A stretch of 64,000 nucleotides of DNA from an uncultured Chloroflexia bacterium (GCA_963819655.1 CAWFXA010000002.1:384001-448000), one strand, 5' to 3'; shown: positions 41,452-53,696, counted from the stretch's first letter. Notes: generated from the sequence alone by a model not told the origin. Made by a program: numbers and translations.

Positions 41452-41817
41452 TTGGAACAGCTCTGGTACGTCGTGGGCTTCGCCTTCGCCGGCGTGTCGT
41501 TCGTCTTCCTGACGATCGGTGCCGCGTGGTTGGTCTCACACCGCAATCGCGGCGACGTCCACAAGGGCCTGCCGTACGAATCGGGCATCGATACCTATGG
41601 CGATACGCACGGCCGGTTCGGGCTGTCGTTCTACATCTACGCCCTGCTGTTCGTGGCCTTCGACATCGAGGTGATCTTCATCTACCTCTGGGCGATCGTC
41701 TTCCAGGATCCCGCGCTGAACCCGGCGGCGCTGTTCGTGAGCATGGTGGTCTTCGTGGCGATCCTGCTCCTGGGCCTCGCCTACGCCTGGCGGAAGGGGG
41801 CCCTGACGTGGCGCTGA
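41452..41817 (+). CDS. nuoA: NADH-quinone oxidoreductase subunit A
   Basis: [31 protein letters not shown]; TTG start after GGGAG. Confidence 0.95.
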
Positions 41818-42565: not shown

Positions 42566-43114
42566 GTGGACCGAGCCTTCAAGGCCCGCCTCGAGCGGCG
42601 GTTCGGCGAGCAGCTGACGGGCCCCATCCGGCAGCGCCACGACGAGACGGAGATCCGGATCGGGCCGGGCGACGTGACCCAGGTCATCACCGCGCTCCAC
42701 GACGAGCCGGAGTTCGGCTTCGAATTCCTGGCCGACCTGGCCGGGGTGGATACGGGCGACGTCATGCAGGTCGTGTACCACCTGTGGAGCGCGACCACGC
42801 CCGACTGGCTTCGGGTCATCGCCGACGGCCTGCCGCGCGAGGACCCGCGCGTCCCGTCGGTGACTTTCATGTGGAAGGGCGCCGAGTGGATGGAACGCGA
42901 GGCCTACGACATGTTCGGCATCACGTTCGAAGGCAATCGCGACCTGCGCCGCATCTACCTCCCTCCCGACTACACGAGCTTCCCTCTCCGAAAGGACTTC
43001 TACCTTCCGGACGACGCGGCCCGTTCCCCGGGCGCGGGCGTCCGACCCATGGAACGGACGCACACCCCACGCGAGACCCCGGCGACGGCGAACGTCCGTC
43101 GGGGCGGTGCGTGA
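42566..43114 (+). CDS. nuoC: NADH-quinone oxidoreductase subunit C
   Basis: VVYHL, WMEREAYDMFGITFEG, FPLRKDF. Confidence 0.95.
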   Translation: MDRAFKARLERRFGEQLTGPIRQRHDETEIRIGPGDVTQVITALHDEPEFGFEFLADLAGVDTGDVMQVVYHLWSATTPDWLRVIADGLPREDPRVPSVTFMWKGAEWMEREAYDMFGITFEGNRDLRRIYLPPDYTSFPLRKDFYLPDDAARSPGAGVRPMERTHTPRETPATANVRRGGA

Positions 43115-44586: not shown

Positions 44587-45936
44587 ATGACTGTGATCGG
44601 GCGGTCGTGGAGCAGGCTGACGCTGCCGGGGAAGGTCGTGTTCACGGTCGTCCCGCTATTGCTGCTGCTGACGATCGGGGCGATCGCGCTGATCGTGATC
44701 TTCGGCCAGGCGATCGTCGACATCCTCGTCGCCAACCTGCCGATCGTCCGCTTCGTCGTCGCCGTCACGGTCATCCTGATCGCGACCGTCCCGACCGCGT
44801 TCCTGATCATCTACATGGAGATGAAGATCATCGCTCTGATGAATCTTCGGATCGGGCCGGACCGGGTCGGGCCGTTCGGGTCGCTCCTGTCAACGGTCCA
44901 CGGGTTGAAGGTCCTCATGAAGGAGGACTTCACGCCGACCGGCGCGGATTCGCTGGTCTTCACGTGGGCGCCGGTCGTCGTCTACCTCGCGAGCGTCCTG
45001 TCGCTGCTCGTCATCCCGTTCGCACCCGGCTTGTTCGGGTATGACCTCAATCTCGGGCTGCTGTATTTCTTCGCGATCGGCGGCCTGGCCGTGGTCGGCC
45101 TGCTGATGGCCGGCTGGTCGAGCTACAACAAGTACTCGCTCCTGGGCGGATTGCGCGCGGCGGCCCAGGTCATCAGCTACGAGATCCCGCTGACGCTGTC
45201 GGTCGTCGGCCTGATGCTCCTGGCCGGGACGATGAGCCTGAACACGCTCGTCGAGAACCAGACCGGCTGGTTCACCGACTGGTACATCTTCCAGCAGCCG
45301 CTCGGGGCTCTCATCTTCTTCATCGCGGCTACCGCCGAGGCGAACCGCACCCCGTTCGACCTGACCGAGGCCGACTCGGAGATCGTCGCCGGGTTCGCGA
45401 CCGAGTACTCGGGCATGCGGTTCGGGTTCTTCTTCTTTGCCGAGTACGTGAACGTGTTCATCGTCTCGGCCCTGTTCGTCACGCTCTTCCTGGGTGGCTG
45501 GAATGCGCCGTTCCCGTGGCCATGGCCGGTCGAGCTGAACATCGATCCAGCGTCGTTCAACATCGGCCTGCTGTTCATCCTCGGCCTGGTGCCGGTCGTC
45601 CTGACGCTGTTGTTCGGCGCGCCCTTCTACCTGCTGAACTCGCGCATCAGATGGTGGCAGGCGCTGCTCATCGGGTTCGTTCTTGCGAACCTGTTCATCG
45701 TCACGCTGCTCGGCGCGTGGGCGTACCTCGGACTGCCGTGGGTCGCCGGTATCCTCTGGTTCATGCTCAAGACCTACACGCTCGTGTTCACGTTCGTGTG
45801 GATGCGCGGCACCTTGCCCCGGGTCCGGATCGACCAGCTGATGGACTTCGCGTGGAAGTGGCTGCTGCCGGTGTCGCTGCTCAACCTGTTCGTGACGGCC
45901 GGCGCGATCGTCGTCATCAAGGGACTGGGTCGATGA
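44587..45936 (+). CDS. nuoH: NADH-quinone oxidoreductase subunit H (extra TM segments)
   Basis: RIGPDRVGP, NKYSLLGGLR, QVISYE, NRTPFDLTEADSE, RGTLPRVRIDQL. Confidence 0.96.
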   Translation: MTVIGRSWSRLTLPGKVVFTVVPLLLLLTIGAIALIVIFGQAIVDILVANLPIVRFVVAVTVILIATVPTAFLIIYMEMKIIALMNLRIGPDRVGPFGSLLSTVHGLKVLMKEDFTPTGADSLVFTWAPVVVYLASVLSLLVIPFAPGLFGYDLNLGLLYFFAIGGLAVVGLLMAGWSSYNKYSLLGGLRAAAQVISYEIPLTLSVVGLMLLAGTMSLNTLVENQTGWFTDWYIFQQPLGALIFFIAATAEANRTPFDLTEADSEIVAGFATEYSGMRFGFFFFAEYVNVFIVSALFVTLFLGGWNAPFPWPWPVELNIDPASFNIGLLFILGLVPVVLTLLFGAPFYLLNSRIRWWQALLIGFVLANLFIVTLLGAWAYLGLPWVAGILWFMLKTYTLVFTFVWMRGTLPRVRIDQLMDFAWKWLLPVSLLNLFVTAGAIVVIKGLGR

Positions 45937-46610
45937 GCTTCGTCCCCGGCCTCGGCATCGTGAAGGGAATGGCCCTGACCCTTCGGCGCTTCTTCGAGCC
46001 GAAGGTCACGATCATGTATCCGGAGGTGCGGCTCGACGTCCCGCACAAGTTCCGCGGCCGTCTGCAGCTGCTCTACGACGAGTGGGGCACGCTCAAGTGC
46101 GAGACCTGCTTCCAGTGCGCCCAGGCGTGTCCGATCGAGTGTATCGACATGGGCGGCATCGACACGCGCGGCCGCTACCACGTCCACTGGGGAGCGCCCG
46201 AGACCTATGGCGAGCGACGCGAGGAATCGGCGATGCGCCGCTCGGGCCGGCCCGTCCCGGACCCCGCCTATCGGCCGTTCGAGCCGATCGCGATGGGCGA
46301 GGTAGACCGCGTCCTCGAGGAGTACGACCACGACCCGGCGCGGATGCTCGACATCCTCGAGGCGACCCAGGACGCTTACGGCTATCTCCCCGTAGCTGCC
46401 CTCAAGCGCATCAGCCACGCGACCGGCGCCTGGTACGCGATGATCTACGGTACCGCCAGCTACTACGCCCACCTGCGGTTTGAGCCGGCGAGCGCCAGCG
46501 AGCAGGCAGCGGCGGTCGCCGAGCATCGGCCAGCCGAGGGGACATACCTGTCTGCCCTCGGCGCGGCGCTCGAGGGAGGCGGTCGCCCGGGCGCGCCCGC
46601 CCGCGCCTGA
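45933..46610 (+). CDS. nuoI: Fusion: NuoI N-half (one CxxCxxCxxxCP) + NuoE N-terminal helical domain
   Basis: KGMALTL..F...VTIMYPE...FRG...KCETCFQCAQACP then 'LDILEATQDAYGYLP...YGTASYY'; no second ferredoxin motif and no NuoE 2Fe-2S cysteines. Confidence 0.85.
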   Translation: MSFVPGLGIVKGMALTLRRFFEPKVTIMYPEVRLDVPHKFRGRLQLLYDEWGTLKCETCFQCAQACPIECIDMGGIDTRGRYHVHWGAPETYGERREESAMRRSGRPVPDPAYRPFEPIAMGEVDRVLEEYDHDPARMLDILEATQDAYGYLPVAALKRISHATGAWYAMIYGTASYYAHLRFEPASASEQAAAVAEHRPAEGTYLSALGAALEGGGRPGAPARA

Positions 46611-46612
46611 CG

Positions 46613-47908
46613 ATGGTGACCCTGCTCAAGACCCCGGCCAGTTGGCCGCGGATCCTGCTGGCCCGAGCCGGCGAGAAGGACCCCACCGACCTCGATGCCG
46701 CCGTCGCTGCCGGGGCCTTCGACGGCCTGCGGCGCGCGATCCGCGACCTCGGCGGGGCCGCCACGATCGCGACCATCGCGGCCTCCGGCCTGCGCGGGCG
46801 TGGCGGCGCGGGCTACCCGACCGGTGACAAATGGCGGACGGCGGCAGACACCGATGCCGACCGCCGGTACGTCGTCGCCAACGGCTACGGCGCCGACCCG
46901 GCGTCGCACACCGATCGAACGCTCATGCTGCGCGACCCGTTCGCGGTCATCGAAGGGACCGCCATCGCGGCCAGCGCCATCGGTGCGACCGAGGCCTTCA
47001 TCGCGGTCCGCGCCGAGGACGCCGACGTCGTCGCCCGGTTGTCTGCGGCGATCGGCGCGGCGACCGATGCAGGCTTCATCGGCGCCGACGTCCTCGGGTC
47101 GGGCCGTGACCTGTGGCTCACGGTCCGCCCGGTGCAGGGCGCATACATGCTCGGCGAGGAGACGGTCCTGCTCAAGGCGCTCGAAGGCAAGCGCGGCCAG
47201 CCCGAGCAGAAGCCACCGCATCCCGCCACTGTCGGCCTGTACGAGCGCCCGACGGTCGTCAACAACGTCCAGACGCTGGCCGCCGTGCCGTGGATCGTGC
47301 GCTCGGGCGCCGACGCCTACCGCGCGACCGGTTCGACCAGGTCGTCGGGCACCGTCCTCGTGCAGCTCCGGGCGCCCGGCAAGCAGGGCGTCGCCGAGGT
47401 CCCGCTGGGCACGCCGCTTCGCGACATCGTGAAGCTCGGCGGGAAGATGCCGGCCGGCCGGACGCTCCAGGCGGTGCTCATCGGCGGGCCGTCCGGCGGC
47501 CTGCTCCCGCCCGATGCGCTCGATACCCCGTACGACTTCGGGACGCTCCGCGAGGCGGGCGCCCATCTCGGCTCGGGCTCCGTTGTCGCGGTCGACGACC
47601 GTACGGACCTGCTCGAGCTGGTCGGGGTGCTGATGCGGTTCTGCGCGAACGAGGCATGCGGCAAGTCGATCCCCTGCCGCATCGGGACGAAGCGGCTGGC
47701 CGAGATCGTCGCCCGTCGCGAGGACGGGCTCCTCCGCCCGGTCGACACCCAGCTGGCGGCCGACCTGGCACACGACATCGTCGAGTCCGCCCTGTGCGAC
47801 CACGAGCGGCTCGCGACCCTCCCGCTCACGAGCGGGATGCGATACTTCGGGTCCGACTTCGACCCCGCCAACCGACCCCCGCCGGTCGCGACCGAGGCCG
47901 CCCGATGA
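46613..47908 (+). CDS. nuoF: NuoF-like flavoprotein subunit (degenerate motifs)
   Basis: GLRGRGGAGYPTGDKW, GEETVLL, PTVVNNV, GGPSGG, CGKSIPCRIG. Confidence 0.88.
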   Translation: MVTLLKTPASWPRILLARAGEKDPTDLDAAVAAGAFDGLRRAIRDLGGAATIATIAASGLRGRGGAGYPTGDKWRTAADTDADRRYVVANGYGADPASHTDRTLMLRDPFAVIEGTAIAASAIGATEAFIAVRAEDADVVARLSAAIGAATDAGFIGADVLGSGRDLWLTVRPVQGAYMLGEETVLLKALEGKRGQPEQKPPHPATVGLYERPTVVNNVQTLAAVPWIVRSGADAYRATGSTRSSGTVLVQLRAPGKQGVAEVPLGTPLRDIVKLGGKMPAGRTLQAVLIGGPSGGLLPPDALDTPYDFGTLREAGAHLGSGSVVAVDDRTDLLELVGVLMRFCANEACGKSIPCRIGTKRLAEIVARREDGLLRPVDTQLAADLAHDIVESALCDHERLATLPLTSGMRYFGSDFDPANRPPPVATEAAR

Positions 47909-50553
47909 CCGACACCCTGGCCCGCCCAGAGCGCCTGCCCTCCGGGGCCCCGACCGAGACGTCGGCGTCGCCGGACTCGCTCGCCGAGCGCCTGCTCGAC
48001 ACCCAGGCGCCACAGCGACCGCAGTCGACTCCGCGCATCCGGATCGAGGTCGATGGTCGCGTCGTCGAGGGGTTCGAGGGCCAGACGATCCTCGAGGTCT
48101 GCCGCGACAACGGCATCGAGATCCCGACGCTGTGCTACGAGCCAAAGCTGCCCGGGTTCGGGGCATGCCGGATGTGCGTCGTCGAGGTCGAAGGCGAGGA
48201 ACACCCGCCGATCTCGTGCTCGCGCTCGTGCGAGGACGGGATGAAGGTCGAAACGCAAACAGAGGAGATCCGTCGCCTGCGCCGCACCAACCTCGAGCTG
48301 ATCTTCTCCGACCACAACGCCTACTGCCTGCCGCCCTGCCAGAACAAGTGCCCGAGCCACATCGACATCCCGGGCTTCCTCAAGGCGAATGCCGAGGGCG
48401 ACTGGCGGGAGAGCACCCGCATCTTCAAGCGGACGATCCCCTTCCCGTCGGTGCTCGGGCGGGTCTGCCCGGCGCCGTGCGAGGAGCACTGCCGGCGCGA
48501 CGAGGTCGACGAGGCGATCGCGATCCGCGACACCCACCGCTACGCGGGCGACCAGGTCCTCAAGTCGATGCTCGACGAGGACGTCGATCCGCCCGTGCCG
48601 TTCGAGCGCCAGGCTCCGTCCGGGCGACGGGCCGCCGTCATCGGCTCGGGCCCGGCCGGCATGGCCGCGGCGTACTACCTGCTCATCGCCGGTCACGACG
48701 TCACGGTCTTCGAGCGCGACCCGTCGCCGGGCGGCATGCTCCGCTACGGCATCCCGCAGTACCGGCTGCCGAAGGTCGAGGTGCTCGAGGCCGAGTACGA
48801 GTCGATCTCGCGGCTCGGCGGCACGGTCGTCTGCAACGCCGGTCTGGGCCGAGACTTCACGCTCGACGACCTGACGAACCAGGGCTTCGATTCGGTCATC
48901 GTGGCGATCGGCTGCTACGACACGAACAAGCTCGGGATCCCCAACGAGGACGCCGACGGCGTCATCGACGGCCTCGAATACCTGCGAACGGCGACGCTCG
49001 GGCTGCCGTATCCGGGCCACGTCGGCAAGCGCGTCGTGGTGATCGGCGGCGGCTTCACCTCGATGGACTGCTCGCGGACGTCGATCCGCCAGGGCGCGGC
49101 CGAGGTCACGCTCGTGTACCGCCGCGACATGAAGGACATGCCCGCGGCCGACGAGGTCCACGAGGCGATCGAGGAAGGCGTCACCACGATCTTCCAGGCG
49201 GGCCCGACGCGCGTCATCACGAACCCCAAGACCGGAGCCGTGACCGGCGTCGAGTTCATCCGGATGCAGCTCGGCGAGCCGGACGCCTCCGGCCGGCGGC
49301 GCCCGGAGCCGGCATCCGGCACCGAATTCACGATCCCCTGCGATCGCGTGCTGCTGGCCATCGGTCAGGGTCCCGAGCTCGACTGGATCGGGACGCCCGG
49401 CAATGAGGGGCCCGAGGCGACGAAGCAGCGTCGTCTCAAGGCGGACGCGGTCACGTTCTGGACGGGCCGGCCCGGCGTCTTCGGCAGCGGCGATGTGCGG
49501 ATCGGCGCGGCCACGGTCGTCGAGGCGGTCGCAGAAGGCCGGCGCGCGGCCTACGCCGTGGACGCCTACATGAAGGGCATGGACCTCGACGCCATCCGCA
49601 CGCGCCAGACGCTGGCCGAGCCGCAGCCCGAGTTCCTCTCGATCGTGCCGTTCACCGGCGAGATCAAGGAGCCGCGCTATCGGATGACGCCACTGCCCGC
49701 GGAGGCGCGCAACGACAGCTACATCGAATACGAGCTGCCGTATACGCGCGAGGCGGCGATGGCGGAATCGACTCGCTGCCTGCAGTGCACGTGTGAGGCG
49801 ATCGGGTTCTGCGACCTGCGCCGGCTCGGGATCGAGTACGGCACGACCCTCCAGACGCTCGAGCCGCAGTACCACCAAGGCGCCGGCTATCGGAGCGTGA
49901 CCGAGAACCGGTTCACCGGCATCAACCACGACTACATCCGCGACGACTCCCATGCGTTCATCCTGCGCGAGCCGTCGCGCTGCATCGACTGCGGGCGCTG
50001 CGCGAACGTGTGCGCCGAGGTCGTCGGGGCGGCGTGCTACGACTTCATGCGCATCGGCTTCGACACGCTGGTCACGACGCCGCTCGACATGAGCCTCAAC
50101 GACACCCCGTGCGTGTCGTGCGGTCGCTGCGCGGAGACCTGCCCGACCGGCGCCCTGATGCCCAAGCCGCGCATCCTCGAGAAGTACGAGGTCGACGAGA
50201 GCCGCTGCATCCTGTGCGGCATCTGCGTCGACGCCTGCCCATACGACGCGCTGCGCGACGGTGCCGACATCGAGCTCGCCCACACCGGCCGCTCGGAGCC
50301 GACGATCGACCTCATGGCGCTCGCCGCGATCGACCGCGAGACCGAGGTGACCTACATCCAGCGCGAGCGCGACTGGCTCACCCGGGCGCGTGCCGAAGGC
50401 CGCGTGGTCGACCAGTCGCGACTGCTGCCGATGCTGCCCCCGGCGATCGATGGCGTGCCGAGCAACGGCGGACGCTCGAACGGGAACGGCCACGGTCACG
50501 GTCACGACGGTCATGGGGCGGTCGCCGCGCTCGGCCCTGGCCGGCACGAGTAG
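47905..50553 (+). CDS. NuoG-like Fe-S protein with inserted GltD/NfnB-type FAD/NADPH domain and C-terminal NuoI half
   Basis: IPTLC...GACRMC...SC (2Fe-2S); PCQNKCP, CPAPCEEHC, IGSGPAG, IGGGFTSMD..VYRR; CIDCGRC...CVSCGRCAETCP; YEVDESRCILCGICVDACP. Confidence 0.88.
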   Translation: MTDTLARPERLPSGAPTETSASPDSLAERLLDTQAPQRPQSTPRIRIEVDGRVVEGFEGQTILEVCRDNGIEIPTLCYEPKLPGFGACRMCVVEVEGEEHPPISCSRSCEDGMKVETQTEEIRRLRRTNLELIFSDHNAYCLPPCQNKCPSHIDIPGFLKANAEGDWRESTRIFKRTIPFPSVLGRVCPAPCEEHCRRDEVDEAIAIRDTHRYAGDQVLKSMLDEDVDPPVPFERQAPSGRRAAVIGSGPAGMAAAYYLLIAGHDVTVFERDPSPGGMLRYGIPQYRLPKVEVLEAEYESISRLGGTVVCNAGLGRDFTLDDLTNQGFDSVIVAIGCYDTNKLGIPNEDADGVIDGLEYLRTATLGLPYPGHVGKRVVVIGGGFTSMDCSRTSIRQGAAEVTLVYRRDMKDMPAADEVHEAIEEGVTTIFQAGPTRVITNPKTGAVTGVEFIRMQLGEPDASGRRRPEPASGTEFTIPCDRVLLAIGQGPELDWIGTPGNEGPEATKQRRLKADAVTFWTGRPGVFGSGDVRIGAATVVEAVAEGRRAAYAVDAYMKGMDLDAIRTRQTLAEPQPEFLSIVPFTGEIKEPRYRMTPLPAEARNDSYIEYELPYTREAAMAESTRCLQCTCEAIGFCDLRRLGIEYGTTLQTLEPQYHQGAGYRSVTENRFTGINHDYIRDDSHAFILREPSRCIDCGRCANVCAEVVGAACYDFMRIGFDTLVTTPLDMSLNDTPCVSCGRCAETCPTGALMPKPRILEKYEVDESRCILCGICVDACPYDALRDGADIELAHTGRSEPTIDLMALAAIDRETEVTYIQRERDWLTRARAEGRVVDQSRLLPMLPPAIDGVPSNGGRSNGNGHGHGHDGHGAVAALGPGRHE

Positions 50554-51149: not shown

Positions 51150-51463
51150 GCGACAGCCTCGACACCTACCTGATCCTGTCCGGGATCCTCTTCGCGATCG
51201 GCACGTTCGGCTTCCTCGCGCGGCGCAACGCGATCAGCATGCTCATGTCGATCGAGCTGATGCTCAACGCGGTCAACCTGACGATCGTGGCTTTCGGCCT
51301 GTTCGGGCCCCGCCCCGACGCGATCGCCCAGGGCGCGGTGTTCGCGCTGATGGTCATGGCGGTCGCTGCGGCTGAGGCGACGGTCGGGCTGGCGATCGTC
51401 ATCGCGATCTACCGCAACAAGAGGACTCCGCTAGTCGATGAGTACGACTCCATGAGGCAGTGA
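51146..51463 (+). CDS. nuoK: NADH-quinone oxidoreductase subunit K
   Basis: [28 protein letters not shown]. Confidence 0.96.
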
Positions 51464-51486
51464 TGGGGCTGCGGCGGACAGTTCGG

Positions 51487-51648
51487 CGTGCCACCGGGCA
51501 GCCGATGGCGGCGTTGCCGACTGCGGGCGATCGCTCACGCATACCGCCCCGAGGCCTGAGGCGACGCCCCACGAGCCATCAGCCCGAGGGTTCGTGCGCT
51601 CGCTCCCGTCCTCGTCGGCGCCTTGCCCTCGGCTCCCCCGCTGACACG
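51487..51648 (+). repeat. Structured intergenic hairpin repeat, copy 4 (expanded apical loop)
   Basis: GCCGATGGCGGCGTTGCCGAC...TCGCTCACGCAT-[~50 nt]-GTGCGCTCGCTCC...GTCGGCGCCTTGCCCTCGGC. Confidence 0.78.
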
Positions 51649-51704
51649 CACGGTAGTTCGGCAGACATGCACGGTCGTTCGGGCGGGCTGCCGGGCAGTT
51701 CCAC

Positions 51705-53696
51705 GTGACGATCGAGACGCTGCTGCCGCTCCTGCTCGTCCTGCCGATGGCGGGCTTCCTCATCACGGCGCTGATCGGCCGGCGGCTGGGCAAGCAGGCG
51801 CACTGGATCCCGGTCGGGGTCATCTTCCTGGCCTGGATCGTCGCGATGCTGGCGGTGTGGAACGTGCTGACAGGGGCGGCGCCCTTGCTGCCCGGCTCAG
51901 AGGACACGCACGGTTACGTCGTCGGGCCGTGGGAGTGGATCCCGGCCGGCGGCTTCCACGTCGAGCTCGGGATCCTGGTCGACCCGCTGACCGCCTGCCT
52001 GCTGATCGTCGTCACCACGATCGGCCTGCTGGTCCACGTCTACTCGATCGGCTACATGAGCCACGACCCCGGCTACTGGCGGTTCTTCGCGTACATGAAC
52101 CTGTTCATGTTCTCGATGCTGCTGCTGGTGCTCGCCGACAACTGGCTGGTCCTGTTCGTGGCGTGGGAGCTGGTCGGCCTGTCGAGCTACCTGCTCATCG
52201 GCTTCTGGTACCGCAAGCGGAGCGCGGCTCTTGCCGCCAAGAAGGCGTTCATCGTCAACCGGGTCGGCGATGTCGGGTTCGCCCTCGGGATCATGGCCAT
52301 CTTCCTGAACACGGGCACGCTGAACGTTCGCGAGTCGATCGAGATCCTGATCAACCCGACGCTCGTCGCCTTCCCGATCCCCGTCCCGATCGTCGCGCTG
52401 TTGGTCTTCGCCGGTGCCATGGGCAAGAGCGCCCAGTTCCCGCTCCACGTGTGGCTGCCGGACGCGATGGAAGGCCCGACTCCGGTGTCGGCGCTCATCC
52501 ACGCGGCCACGATGGTCAACGCCGGCGTGTACCTCGTGGCCCGTGCCAACCCGCTGTTCGCGGCCGCGCCGTCCACGATGGTCGTCGTCGCGGCGATCGG
52601 CATCTTCACGGCGATCCTGGCCGCGTCGATCGCGATGACCCAGACCGACATCAAACGGGTGCTCGCGTACTCGACGCTATCCCAGCTCGGCTACATGTTC
52701 GCGGCGCTCGGGGTCGGCGCGTTCACCGCGGCGATCTTCCACCTCATGACCCACGGCTTCTTCAAGGGCCTGCTGTTCCTCGGATCGGGCTCGGTCATCC
52801 ACGCCGTCCACGACGAGCAGGACATGCGCCGGATGGGCGGCCTGGCGAAGAGGATCCCCATCACCTACGCCACGATGCTCGTGGGCTCGATCGCGATCTC
52901 CGGGATCCCACCGCTTGCCGGATTCTTCTCGAAAGACGAGATCCTCGGCGAGGCCTTCAAGTTCGGCTTCTACTGGGTCTGGGCGGTCGGCCTGTTCGTG
53001 GCGCTGCTGACCGCGTTCTACATGTTCCGGCTCATGGGTCTGACCTTCTGGGGCGTGTTCCGCGGCCCAAAGGAGATCTGGGACCGCATCCACGAATCAC
53101 CGGCAGTCATGACCGTGCCGCTGATCCTGCTGGCGATCCCGTCGGTGCTCCTGGGCATCGCCCTCGGTCTGCCGTTCGGCGACAGCACCATCCACCGCTG
53201 GCTCGAGCCGGTGTTCCACCACGCGACCGAGATGCTCGCCTTGCCGCACGAGCCGTACGCCCTGTTCGGCATCGACGGCGGTCTGATCCTCGCCAGTGTG
53301 ACCGTCGCCGTGATCGGCGTGGTCCTTGCCTGGCGCTACTTCGGCGTCGAACTGGGCGGGTTGCGGCTGCCGGCCCGGCCGGAGGTCGTCCGCGAGATCA
53401 GCGCGAGGCCCGGTCTATCCTTCCTGTACCGCGCCTCGCTCAACAAGTGGTGGTTCGATGAGCTCAACCACCTGCTCTTCATCGTCATCGGCGGAAGGCT
53501 GGCGCAGGCGATCTGGTGGTTCGACCGCGAGGTCATCGACGGGACCGTCAACGGCATCGGCAGCGCGACCATCTCGGTCGGCCGCGGCCTTCGCCGCGTG
53601 CAGACCGGTCGGGTCCAGAACTACGCGCTCGGGATCGCCCTCGGGCTGATCGTGATGGCCGGGTCATACCTGCTTCTCGCGGGGAACGGCGGATGA
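51705..53696 (+). CDS. nuoL: NADH-quinone oxidoreductase subunit L
   Basis: WELVGLSSYLLIGFW, GKSAQFPLHVWLPDAMEGPTPVSALIHAATMV, QTGRVQNY. Confidence 0.97.
   Translation: MTIETLLPLLLVLPMAGFLITALIGRRLGKQAHWIPVGVIFLAWIVAMLAVWNVLTGAAPLLPGSEDTHGYVVGPWEWIPAGGFHVELGILVDPLTACLLIVVTTIGLLVHVYSIGYMSHDPGYWRFFAYMNLFMFSMLLLVLADNWLVLFVAWELVGLSSYLLIGFWYRKRSAALAAKKAFIVNRVGDVGFALGIMAIFLNTGTLNVRESIEILINPTLVAFPIPVPIVALLVFAGAMGKSAQFPLHVWLPDAMEGPTPVSALIHAATMVNAGVYLVARANPLFAAAPSTMVVVAAIGIFTAILAASIAMTQTDIKRVLAYSTLSQLGYMFAALGVGAFTAAIFHLMTHGFFKGLLFLGSGSVIHAVHDEQDMRRMGGLAKRIPITYATMLVGSIAISGIPPLAGFFSKDEILGEAFKFGFYWVWAVGLFVALLTAFYMFRLMGLTFWGVFRGPKEIWDRIHESPAVMTVPLILLAIPSVLLGIALGLPFGDSTIHRWLEPVFHHATEMLALPHEPYALFGIDGGLILASVTVAVIGVVLAWRYFGVELGGLRLPARPEVVREISARPGLSFLYRASLNKWWFDELNHLLFIVIGGRLAQAIWWFDREVIDGTVNGIGSATISVGRGLRRVQTGRVQNYALGIALGLIVMAGSYLLLAGNGG

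Follow-up and report, generated by a model that had tools for sequence, protein, structure and literature searches.

A transhydrogenase-type two-flavin module fused to the halves of a split NuoI in a Chloroflexota complex I operon: a candidate NADPH-fed complex I

Introduction

Complex I is usually described with a single NADH-input module. Here we analyzed a 64,000 nucleotide (nt) stretch of DNA from an uncultured Chloroflexia bacterium (GCA_963819655.1 CAWFXA010000002.1:384001-448000; hereafter the window, with positions counted from its first letter). The window holds a complex I (nuo) operon in which three adjacent genes, I'E', F and G' (45933-50553), encode an input module whose nearest relatives are soluble transhydrogenases of the Stn/Nfn-Bfu type. 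Judging from the names of its close relatives, the source organism probably belongs to Candidatus Limnocylindria. We propose that, through this module, NADPH and probably also NADH supply electrons to a quinone-reducing complex I.

The closest described systems are the three-subunit enzymes StnABC and NfnABC (structures 8oh5, 9bov and 9n5u), which are soluble, electron-bifurcating NADPH:NAD+/ferredoxin transhydrogenases. StnC is described as a [2Fe-2S] domain (residues 1-101), a GltD-like module for NADPH and flavin adenine dinucleotide (FAD; 102-565), clusters of the NuoG type, and an FdhF-like domain that is inactive (683-1172) (PMC10482914). The last of these is described as needed for assembly in StnC/NfnA enzymes, and K170, a Lys ligand of the FAD-proximal cluster, is said to be strictly conserved in StnC sequences. 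The motifs HxxxCxxxCxxxCP and CxxCxCxxxxxC, known from Nso/Stn, are interpreted as the scar of GltD integration into a NuoG-like protein (PMC7483475). Bifurcation in Stn/Nfn-Bfu enzymes is placed at the flavin mononucleotide (FMN) and two clusters, the [4Fe-4S] of NuoF and a [2Fe-2S] of the NuoE type, with the low-potential exit via the C-terminal clusters of the B subunit (PMC10482914, PMC12018979).

The 11-subunit complex I-like enzymes (NDH-1, Fpo, Mbx-like) resemble the window operon in combining a conserved core with a lineage-specific input module (PMC4758237). Thermotoga Mbx-like operons hold a GltD-type flavoprotein in place of NuoI (PMC4758237), whereas the window operon retains NuoI in split form and its module is a Stn-type assembly of three subunits. 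Many Chloroflexi genomes were scored as having 13 of the 14 subunits of complex I and lacking NuoG alone (PMC4453560). The literature that we searched, which lay outside subscription journals, yielded no description of a Stn-type module in a nuo operon or of a split NuoI; the supplements of PMC12018979, PMC4453560 and PMC7483475 might list such forms.

Results

The module comprises three genes, which are listed below with their parts.

45933..46610, plus strand: I'E' fusion (225 amino acids, aa); NuoI N-half, then the helical domain from the N-terminus of a NuoE/StnA-like protein; no [2Fe-2S] domain
45957..46151, plus strand: NuoI N-half with the first CxxCxxCxxxCP motif (CETCFQCAQACP); TIGR01971 positions 1-63 of 121; C56, C59, C62, C66 and P67 invariant
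46275..46493, plus strand: E' helical domain; aligns to 9bov_C 22-89 and StnA 8oh5_A 14-86
46613..47908, plus strand: F (431 aa), NuoF/StnB-core flavoprotein without the N- and C-terminal extra domains of StnB; second N3 Cys is Ser
47905..50553, plus strand: G' (882 aa), StnC/NfnA-like subunit without FdhF-like domain; NuoI C-half at its end
48034..48261, plus strand: [2Fe-2S] domain of G' (N1b-like); Fer2_4, residues 44-119; C77, C88, C91 and C105 invariant
48325..49578, plus strand: GltD/NfnB-like module of G' with two [4Fe-4S] motifs, FAD site and NAD(P)H site; Fer4_20 and Pyr_redox_2; aligned to NfnB, GltD, StnC and NfnA
49777..49812, plus strand: CLQCTCEAIGFC, the putative completion of the GltD distal cluster and of the His/Cys (N5-like) cluster begun at H137/C141 (48313-48354); 80/80 loci
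49960..50157, plus strand: ferredoxin-like dicluster domain of G' with two CxxCxxCxxxC motifs; Fer4_Nqo3, residues 686-751; cysteines invariant
50170..50334, plus strand: NuoI C-half with the second CxxCxxCxxxCP motif (RCILCGICVDACP); matched by TIGR01971 and solved NuoI chains; 80/80 loci

The G' frame is open from ATG to stop, and its ATG overlaps the stop codon of the nuoF-like gene just upstream. Besides Fer2_4 and Fer4_Nqo3, Pfam placed Fer4_20 (a DPD/GltD-type Fe-S domain) at residues 141-220, Pyr_redox_2 (FAD/NAD(P)H oxidoreductase) at residues 243-545, and a 4Fe-4S dicluster domain at residues 736-782. NADH-G_4Fe-4S_3, the NuoG His/Cys cluster domain, matched at its positions 1-17 of 40 only (residues 126-142), and the Pfam search of G' found no molybdopterin domain. 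The GltD-like part covers nearly all of NfnB (4ylf_B 46-461 of 468) and of GltD (6s6s_G 53-471 of 482). These results agree with a preliminary description of this DNA, which had reported a NuoG-type 2Fe-2S domain, a His/Cys motif interrupted by a complete GltD-like module, and the absence of the molybdopterin-like NuoG C-domain; the motifs that it had named (DHNAYC, RCLQCTCEAIGFCDL, IGSGPAG, IGGGFTSMD...VYRR) are each present in the translation. That description had counted two further [4Fe-4S] motifs after the module. Such motifs are there, but they number three (CxxCxxCxxxC(P) at residues 693-703, 736-747 and 768-779), and the third is the second NuoI motif.

Profile searches separated G' from NuoG. 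The NuoG profile TIGR01973 scored 84.7 bits against a cut-off of 470, with a good match at positions 1-98 only; NF009454 (PRK12814, 'putative NADPH-dependent glutamate synthase small subunit') scored 550.8 bits, below its cut-off of 916, and TIGR01317 (GltD) 223.9 bits, below its cut-off of 447.7. Relatedness was judged from bit-score ranks against all solved structures (PDB chains). The best match of G' was 9bov_A (534 bits, G' residues 45-777), followed by NfnA 9n5u_A (482 bits) and StnC 8oh5_C of Sporomusa ovata (474 bits, G' 44-780 to chain 3-701), an alignment that stops at residue 701 of the chain's 1172. Among two-subunit enzymes, NfnB and GltD chains scored 227-266 bits, and complex I NuoG chains matched over residues 44-146 only. 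Similarly, F was closest to 9n5u_B (317 bits), 9bov_B (316) and StnB (307), with complex I NuoF chains at 237-271, and the nearest solved chains of E' were 9bov_C, StnA and NfnC. StnABC/NfnABC thus provided the top sequence matches for all three module proteins.

The likeness to StnABC/NfnABC extends to the subunit order (NuoE-like, NuoF-like, [2Fe-2S]-GltD-NuoG fusion) and to the FAD and NADPH motifs, with G' R280 corresponding to StnC R239. As in StnC/NfnA, an N-terminal [2Fe-2S] domain precedes a GltD-like FAD/NADPH module that lies between the two integration-scar motifs, found in G' as HNAYCLPPCQNKCP and CLQCTCEAIGFC. Because both scar motifs are present and the layout matches, we regard G' as a StnC/NfnA-like protein whose end coincides with the expected start of the FdhF-like domain. 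By these alignments G' is classified not as a NuoG with an added GltD domain, but as a Stn/Nfn-type large subunit. The earlier statement that NuoG had been replaced was correct in that a GltD/NfnB-type fusion occupies the nuoG slot; it understated the change, as Stn/Nfn-Bfu proteins, not NuoEFG, are the closest to E', F and G' alike. The NAD(P)H-site motif GGGFTSMD..VYRR lines up with the same stretch in the NADPH-binding StnC-like chains, which upholds the earlier assignment of a second Rossmann motif of NADP(H) type, as found in the NADPH-using StnC/NfnA.

The window module differs from StnABC/NfnABC in several respects. It lacks the FdhF-like domain (StnC 683-1172), its E subunit lacks the [2Fe-2S] cluster, its F subunit lacks the N- and C-terminal extra domains, and G' has His in place of the Lys cluster ligand. 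The module is also fused at both ends to NuoI halves and encoded within a nuo operon, and because of the latter its acceptor is presumably quinone, not ferredoxin.

These features of G' are conserved. A relative of G' is encoded in 547 of 598 pattern-matched stretches of genome contigs, from which 80 loci (82-98% identical) were kept. The H-motif HNAYCLPPCQNKCP, GGGFTSMD..VYRR, CLQCTCEAIG[FY]C and RCILCGICVDACP each occur in 80/80 loci, and CETCFQCAQACP occurs in 71/71 loci holding I'E'. In a 16-sequence alignment reaching down to 44% identity, every cluster cysteine of G' is invariant. Given the 80/80 counts and these invariant cysteines, the G' motifs are not due to chance. In database entries G' is titled 'FAD-dependent oxidoreductase' or 'formate dehydrogenase major subunit'; the titles given to I'E' are 'hypothetical' and 'subunit E'.

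The C-terminus of G' carries a His/Gly-rich tail (GNGHGHGHDGHG, window about 50470-50520), which may bind metal. It is variable in length in close relatives (loci L045, L087, L090) and absent from six of the families into which the relatives were sorted (f2, f3, f4, f9, f28, f46).

The genes at the two edges of the module each carry part of NuoI, a protein defined as one polypeptide with two CxxCxxCxxxCP motifs. Residues 9-73 of I'E' align to the N-half of NuoI chains (7ar7_I 23-87 of 169; Nqo9, 2fug_9, 7-68 of 182), and residues 758-810 of G' align to the C-half (8qby_I 93-145 of 163; 7ar7_I 99-146 of 169; Nqo9 86-124). Of the 121 positions of the NuoI profile TIGR01971, 1-63 are matched in I'E' and about 71-116 in G' (residues 756-800), such that the two halves jointly cover the profile. 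I'E' and G' are also the two best TIGR01971 matches genome-wide; in this genome, which is 91% complete, no locus spans both halves and hence no whole nuoI was found. We concluded that NuoI is split in two, with its halves fused to E' and to G'. It follows from the gene order and the split that I'E'-F-G' occupies the spot of the loop between the two cluster motifs of nuoI, with in-frame fusions at both edges. Because the half with the first motif starts I'E' and the half with the second ends G', the two-cluster NuoI fold would have to form across two polypeptides. The preliminary description had not mentioned the split of NuoI, nor that the HxxxCxxxCxxxCP and CxxCxCxxxxxC signature is known from Nso/Stn.

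The remainder of I'E' (residues 115-187) aligns to the N-terminal helical domain of 9bov_C, StnA and NfnC, and the protein ends there; no thioredoxin-like [2Fe-2S] domain was found in I'E'. The state of this E' cluster domain varies by family: it is truncated in f1, and in f2 and f3 it is kept with its second Cys pair gone.

In families f2 and f3, I'E' is ~50 residues longer (L105 6995-7816, L106 12180-13007, L107 6995-7840), and its thioredoxin-like tail keeps CxCxxC and has GAGA(I/M)(S/A)PA at the position of NuoE's second Cys pair. This tail looks like an intermediate stage in the loss of an N1a-type cluster.

F comprises the NuoF-like core of StnB. Its residues 11-419 match StnB 102-512 of 584, so that it has neither the domain at the N-terminus of StnB nor the two-cluster domain at the C-terminus. 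Of 72 loci, 71 preserve the glycine-rich FMN loop LRGRGGxG[FY]..KW, and the three N3 cysteines other than the second are each present in 71-72; GAYxxGEET, NNVxT and the KPPxP Lys persist as well. Most relatives of F (L045, L087, L090, L106-L115) have a C-terminal extension with a conserved CPxGxC, perhaps a small metal site. This extension is missing from F of the window and from its closest relatives, L018 and L105.

The other genes of the operon encode the core of complex I. The genes are arranged in the order nuoA, B, C, D, H, I'E', F, G', nuoJ, K, L, M, N, with the nuo genes as follows.

41452..41817, plus strand: nuoA; PF00507 at 41506-41811, 104 bits
41808..42563, plus strand: nuoB (N2 cluster subunit), start approximate; TIGR01957, 216 bits; CCAIEM...C..SGG...GCPP conserved
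42566..43114, plus strand: nuoC, start approximate; TIGR01961, 107.6 bits
43107..44408, plus strand: nuoD with quinone-site motifs; NF004739, 436 bits; GPQHPSTHG and LEY aligned to the 49-kDa subunit 7zm7_C
44587..45936, plus strand: nuoH; NF004741, 330 bits
50556..51149, plus strand: nuoJ, start approximate; NF005168, 111.9 bits
51146..51463, plus strand: nuoK; NF004322, 118 bits
51705..53696, plus strand: nuoL; NF005141, 732 bits
53693..55348, plus strand: nuoM, start approximate; TIGR01972, 577 bits
55345..56844, plus strand: nuoN; TIGR01770, 398 bits

NuoD retains GPQHPSTHG and, by alignment to the solved 49-kDa subunit, the Tyr of the DRLDY-type motif; NuoB retains CCAIEM, C..SGG and GCPP. 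We assume the functional roles of the NuoD quinone-site His and Tyr and of the NuoB N2 cysteines. The operon therefore holds the full set of A, B, C, D, H, J, K, L, M and N expected of a quinone-reducing Nuo core, together with the N2 cysteines and the quinone-site His/Tyr, and this core looks functional. These findings support the earlier view that the module is part of a real complex I. Genome-wide we found one nuoD and one nuoA, and at 91% genome completeness the search found no canonical nuoG; the window operon thus encodes the only complex I of this genome.

Compared to the canonical 14-subunit enzyme (NuoA-N; Thermus Nqo1-15, E. coli), the window operon shares the ten core subunits, the N2 cysteines, the NuoD quinone-site motifs, an FMN-type NuoF, and N1b-, N5- and N4-like motifs. 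It differs in its order (A B C D H I'E' F G' J K L M N), in a NuoG counterpart that has a second flavin site and no large C-terminal domain, in a NuoE counterpart without the N1a cluster, and in a NuoI made up of two pieces on two proteins.

We surveyed 401 Chloroflexota genomes for the I'E' fusion, counting matches that ran from the NuoI half into E'. Among 45 other Limnocylindria genomes, the fusion was present in 23/23, 4/4, 16/16 and 2/2 genomes of the four families sampled, and 44 of the 45 had no second NuoI-like match. The fusion was seen as well, at 27-33% identity, in at least 16 genomes from three further families. When 10 clusters of more distant I'E' relatives were looked up, they bore Chloroflexi/Limnocylindria names only. 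The window gene order is repeated in loci L105, L106, L107 and L116, and arrangements differ by family:

Families f2 and f3: entire operon, arranged like that of the window
Family f4: two contigs, one with B-D-I'E'-F-G' and one with C-H-J-L-M-N; a single NuoB and a single NuoH in the genome
Family f28: B-I'E'-F-G' as a cluster of four genes, C-D-H in a cluster apart from it, and a canonical nuo operon at another place

The f28 protein has relatives with Ktedonobacterales/Ktedonobacteraceae titles, among them one from the cultured Tengunoibacter tsumagoiensis Uno3, in which we checked that B, I'E', F and G' are adjacent; Thermogemmatispora species are also among the named relatives.

T. tsumagoiensis Uno3 has two full-length G' copies (G401 C1:2201298-2203658 and C2:2166511-2168910; 75-76% identity to the query), of which only the C1 copy was seen beside I'E', F and NuoB. 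Two Ktedonobacterales genomes (G165, G361) have a lone nuoC-nuoD-nuoH cluster (L118 11862-14635, L119 8163-10805; in L119 followed by valyl-tRNA synthetase) on top of a canonical nuo operon and the B-I'E'-F-G' cluster. The extra nuoC-D-H suggests a second peripheral arm plus NuoH, perhaps sharing the remaining membrane subunits. In genome G009 (L116 7904-11644), F and G' were matched in several pieces in different frames, which reflects either frameshifts from assembly error or decaying genes.

Proposed Function and Alternatives

We propose that I'E'-F-G' descends, in trimmed and non-bifurcating form, from an NADPH:NAD+ oxidoreductase module of the Stn/Nfn-Bfu type, and that with its two flavins it passes electrons from NADPH, and probably from NADH, to a complex I that reduces quinone; we assign this reading a probability of roughly 0.6. 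An NADPH-fed complex I is the leading reading because a fusion lies in the nuoG slot, its Rossmann motif is of the NADPH type, and the complex I around it is a real one. Because this NADPH-binding module is built into the only complex I, the proton pump can probably run on NADPH.

The module would be held on the complex by NuoI, whose N-half begins I'E' and whose C-half ends G', and these covalent ties may stand in for the docking role of the missing large NuoG domain. NADPH would reduce the FAD in the GltD-like module of G'. Electrons would then cross the two GltD-type [4Fe-4S] clusters, of which the FAD-proximal one has His211 where StnC has Lys170, and would arrive at the His/Cys (N5-like) cluster, whose motif hosts the module insertion. 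NADH oxidised at the FMN of F would probably join the same chain via the N3-like, [2Fe-2S] and N4-like clusters. From there, electrons would pass to the two NuoI clusters formed jointly by I' and the G' tail, then to N2 in NuoB and to quinone at NuoD/NuoH, and would thereby drive the NuoL/M/N pumps.

Several observations weigh against this proposal. The argument for NADPH specificity is motif likeness to relatives, and that for two-chain assembly of the NuoI fold comes from sequence. PntB is also encoded in the genome, so there is no missing transhydrogenase to explain; we rejected the idea that the module is a stand-in for one. The place of the StnC Lys ligand K170 is taken in G' by His211, which aligns with the Lys of 9bov_A and 9n5u_A, and this His is invariant in the 16 sequences and in 80/80 loci. 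In F, the NADEGDPGAF stretch reads NGYGADPASH, and the FMN-adjacent Asp has become Tyr (Tyr92) in all families of the clade; Asp-195 of archaeal NfnB is placed beside FMN (PMC12018979). The second N3 Cys of F is Thr (43) or Ser (29) across 72 loci and Ala in f3, and is intact in families f4, f9, f28 and f46. Moreover, F is less conserved than G' in 70/70 loci (median identity 69.7% vs 86.7%). Because of the altered site, the lost N3 Cys and the faster divergence, NADH input via F is uncertain.

The changes in F bear most directly on an NADPH-only complex I, in which G' would be the sole working input and F, with E', would be a scaffold or a dead-end electron store that oxidises no NADH. The faster evolution of F in 70/70 loci, the loss of one N3 cysteine in families f1-f3, the clade-wide Asp to Tyr change, and the loss of the E' cluster (truncated in f1, second Cys pair lost in f2/f3) all favor this alternative, and if the StnC path applies, electrons of the FAD branch can arrive at the N5-like cluster without passing through F. 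We consider it possible but doubtful: F is kept in every lineage examined, with the FMN loop, the other three N3 cysteines, GAYxxGEET, the KPPxP Lys and NNVxT in place as counted above, and families f4, f9, f28 and f46 retain all four N3 cysteines. It is improbable that the module works mainly toward NADP+, whether by reverse electron flow from quinol driven by the proton-motive force or as an NADH-to-NADP+ transhydrogenase. Stn/Nfn enzymes are described as reversible (PMC10482914, PMC7483475), and the two nucleotide sites lie on one Fe-S chain. However, the lineage has PntB for NADPH supply, the genome's only complex I is needed for forward respiration, and no lithotrophic context was seen in the operon. 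At the ratios usual in cells, NADH-to-NADP+ transfer without coupling also runs uphill.

Descent from a bifurcating enzyme family might suggest a bifurcating or confurcating complex I, with NADPH oxidation coupled to NAD+/ferredoxin as in StnABC and quinone as an extra acceptor; the preliminary description had listed bifurcation as an option. The bifurcating core of StnAB/NfnBC is incomplete here. E' ends after its helical domain and so lacks the NuoE-type [2Fe-2S] cluster that is part of the proposed bifurcation site, and F, equivalent to StnB 102-512 of 584, lacks the ferredoxin-reducing 2x[4Fe-4S] domain at the C-terminus as well as the N-terminal domain; bifurcation is unlikely on these grounds. 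The FAD of StnC is itself described as non-bifurcating (PMC10482914), and we give this option very little credence. Least probable of all, in our judgment, is a soluble I'E'-F-G' enzyme that is merely co-transcribed with the nuo genes and stays outside the membrane complex. Ktedonobacteria do carry these genes apart from the membrane-arm genes, in the four-gene cluster with nuoB. Nevertheless, that cluster is always accompanied by its own nuoB, and elsewhere in the genome by its own nuoC/D/H, and the only NuoI sequences in the window genome are the two fused halves, while complex I needs NuoI to link its input to N2.

If the proposed NADPH-fed complex I is correct, NADPH would be a direct respiratory fuel, and the operon would illustrate how modules are exchanged in nature as complex I evolves and would serve as a test case for input-module docking without the large NuoG domain. 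An entire class of bacteria that abound in soil and freshwater, together with some of the Ktedonobacteria, carries this different input module, taken from soluble transhydrogenases. Its second flavin site is of the NADPH type, and its attachment, an essential two-cluster subunit built from two polypeptides, is of a kind not seen elsewhere. Because cultured carriers exist, the question is directly testable. The layout may also explain why the survey in PMC4453560 scored many Chloroflexi as short of NuoG alone. As a tentative evolutionary scenario, which we hold to be speculative, the 11-subunit core might have gained a nucleotide-oxidising module a second time and independently of NuoEFG, via a Stn/Nfn-type operon inserted into nuoI; decay of the NADH site in the main Limnocylindria lineage would then have left an NADPH-specific proton-pumping complex I.

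Additional Observations

The nuoK-nuoL spacer of 240 nt, whose length varies in relatives, contains an Arg/Pro-rich open reading frame of 82 aa (51460-51708). We rejected it as an extra subunit, given weak matches in only 7/78 loci and no family match, and it is probably not a gene.

Comparison of 45933-50553 with four metatranscriptome runs gave short near-identical contigs, for example one of 211 nt with 1 difference (49243-49453) and one of 332 nt with 4 differences (49615-49946). The libraries may hold DNA, and the contigs are a weak hint and no evidence of transcription.

A second NuoE-/NuoF-like pair lies ~570 kb away (G000:C2:1002100-1005100 and 1007665-1008936; L012 6101-9093 and 11042-12670, minus strand). 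The pair is followed by a short Fe-S protein ending in a molybdopterin-type Fe4S4 domain, and an adenylate-cyclase-like gene separates that protein from a molybdopterin oxidoreductase frame with one in-frame TGA. We rejected this locus as a spare canonical N-module because its neighbors are formate-dehydrogenase-like and it is far from the nuo genes; it may instead encode a formate dehydrogenase in pieces, perhaps with selenocysteine.

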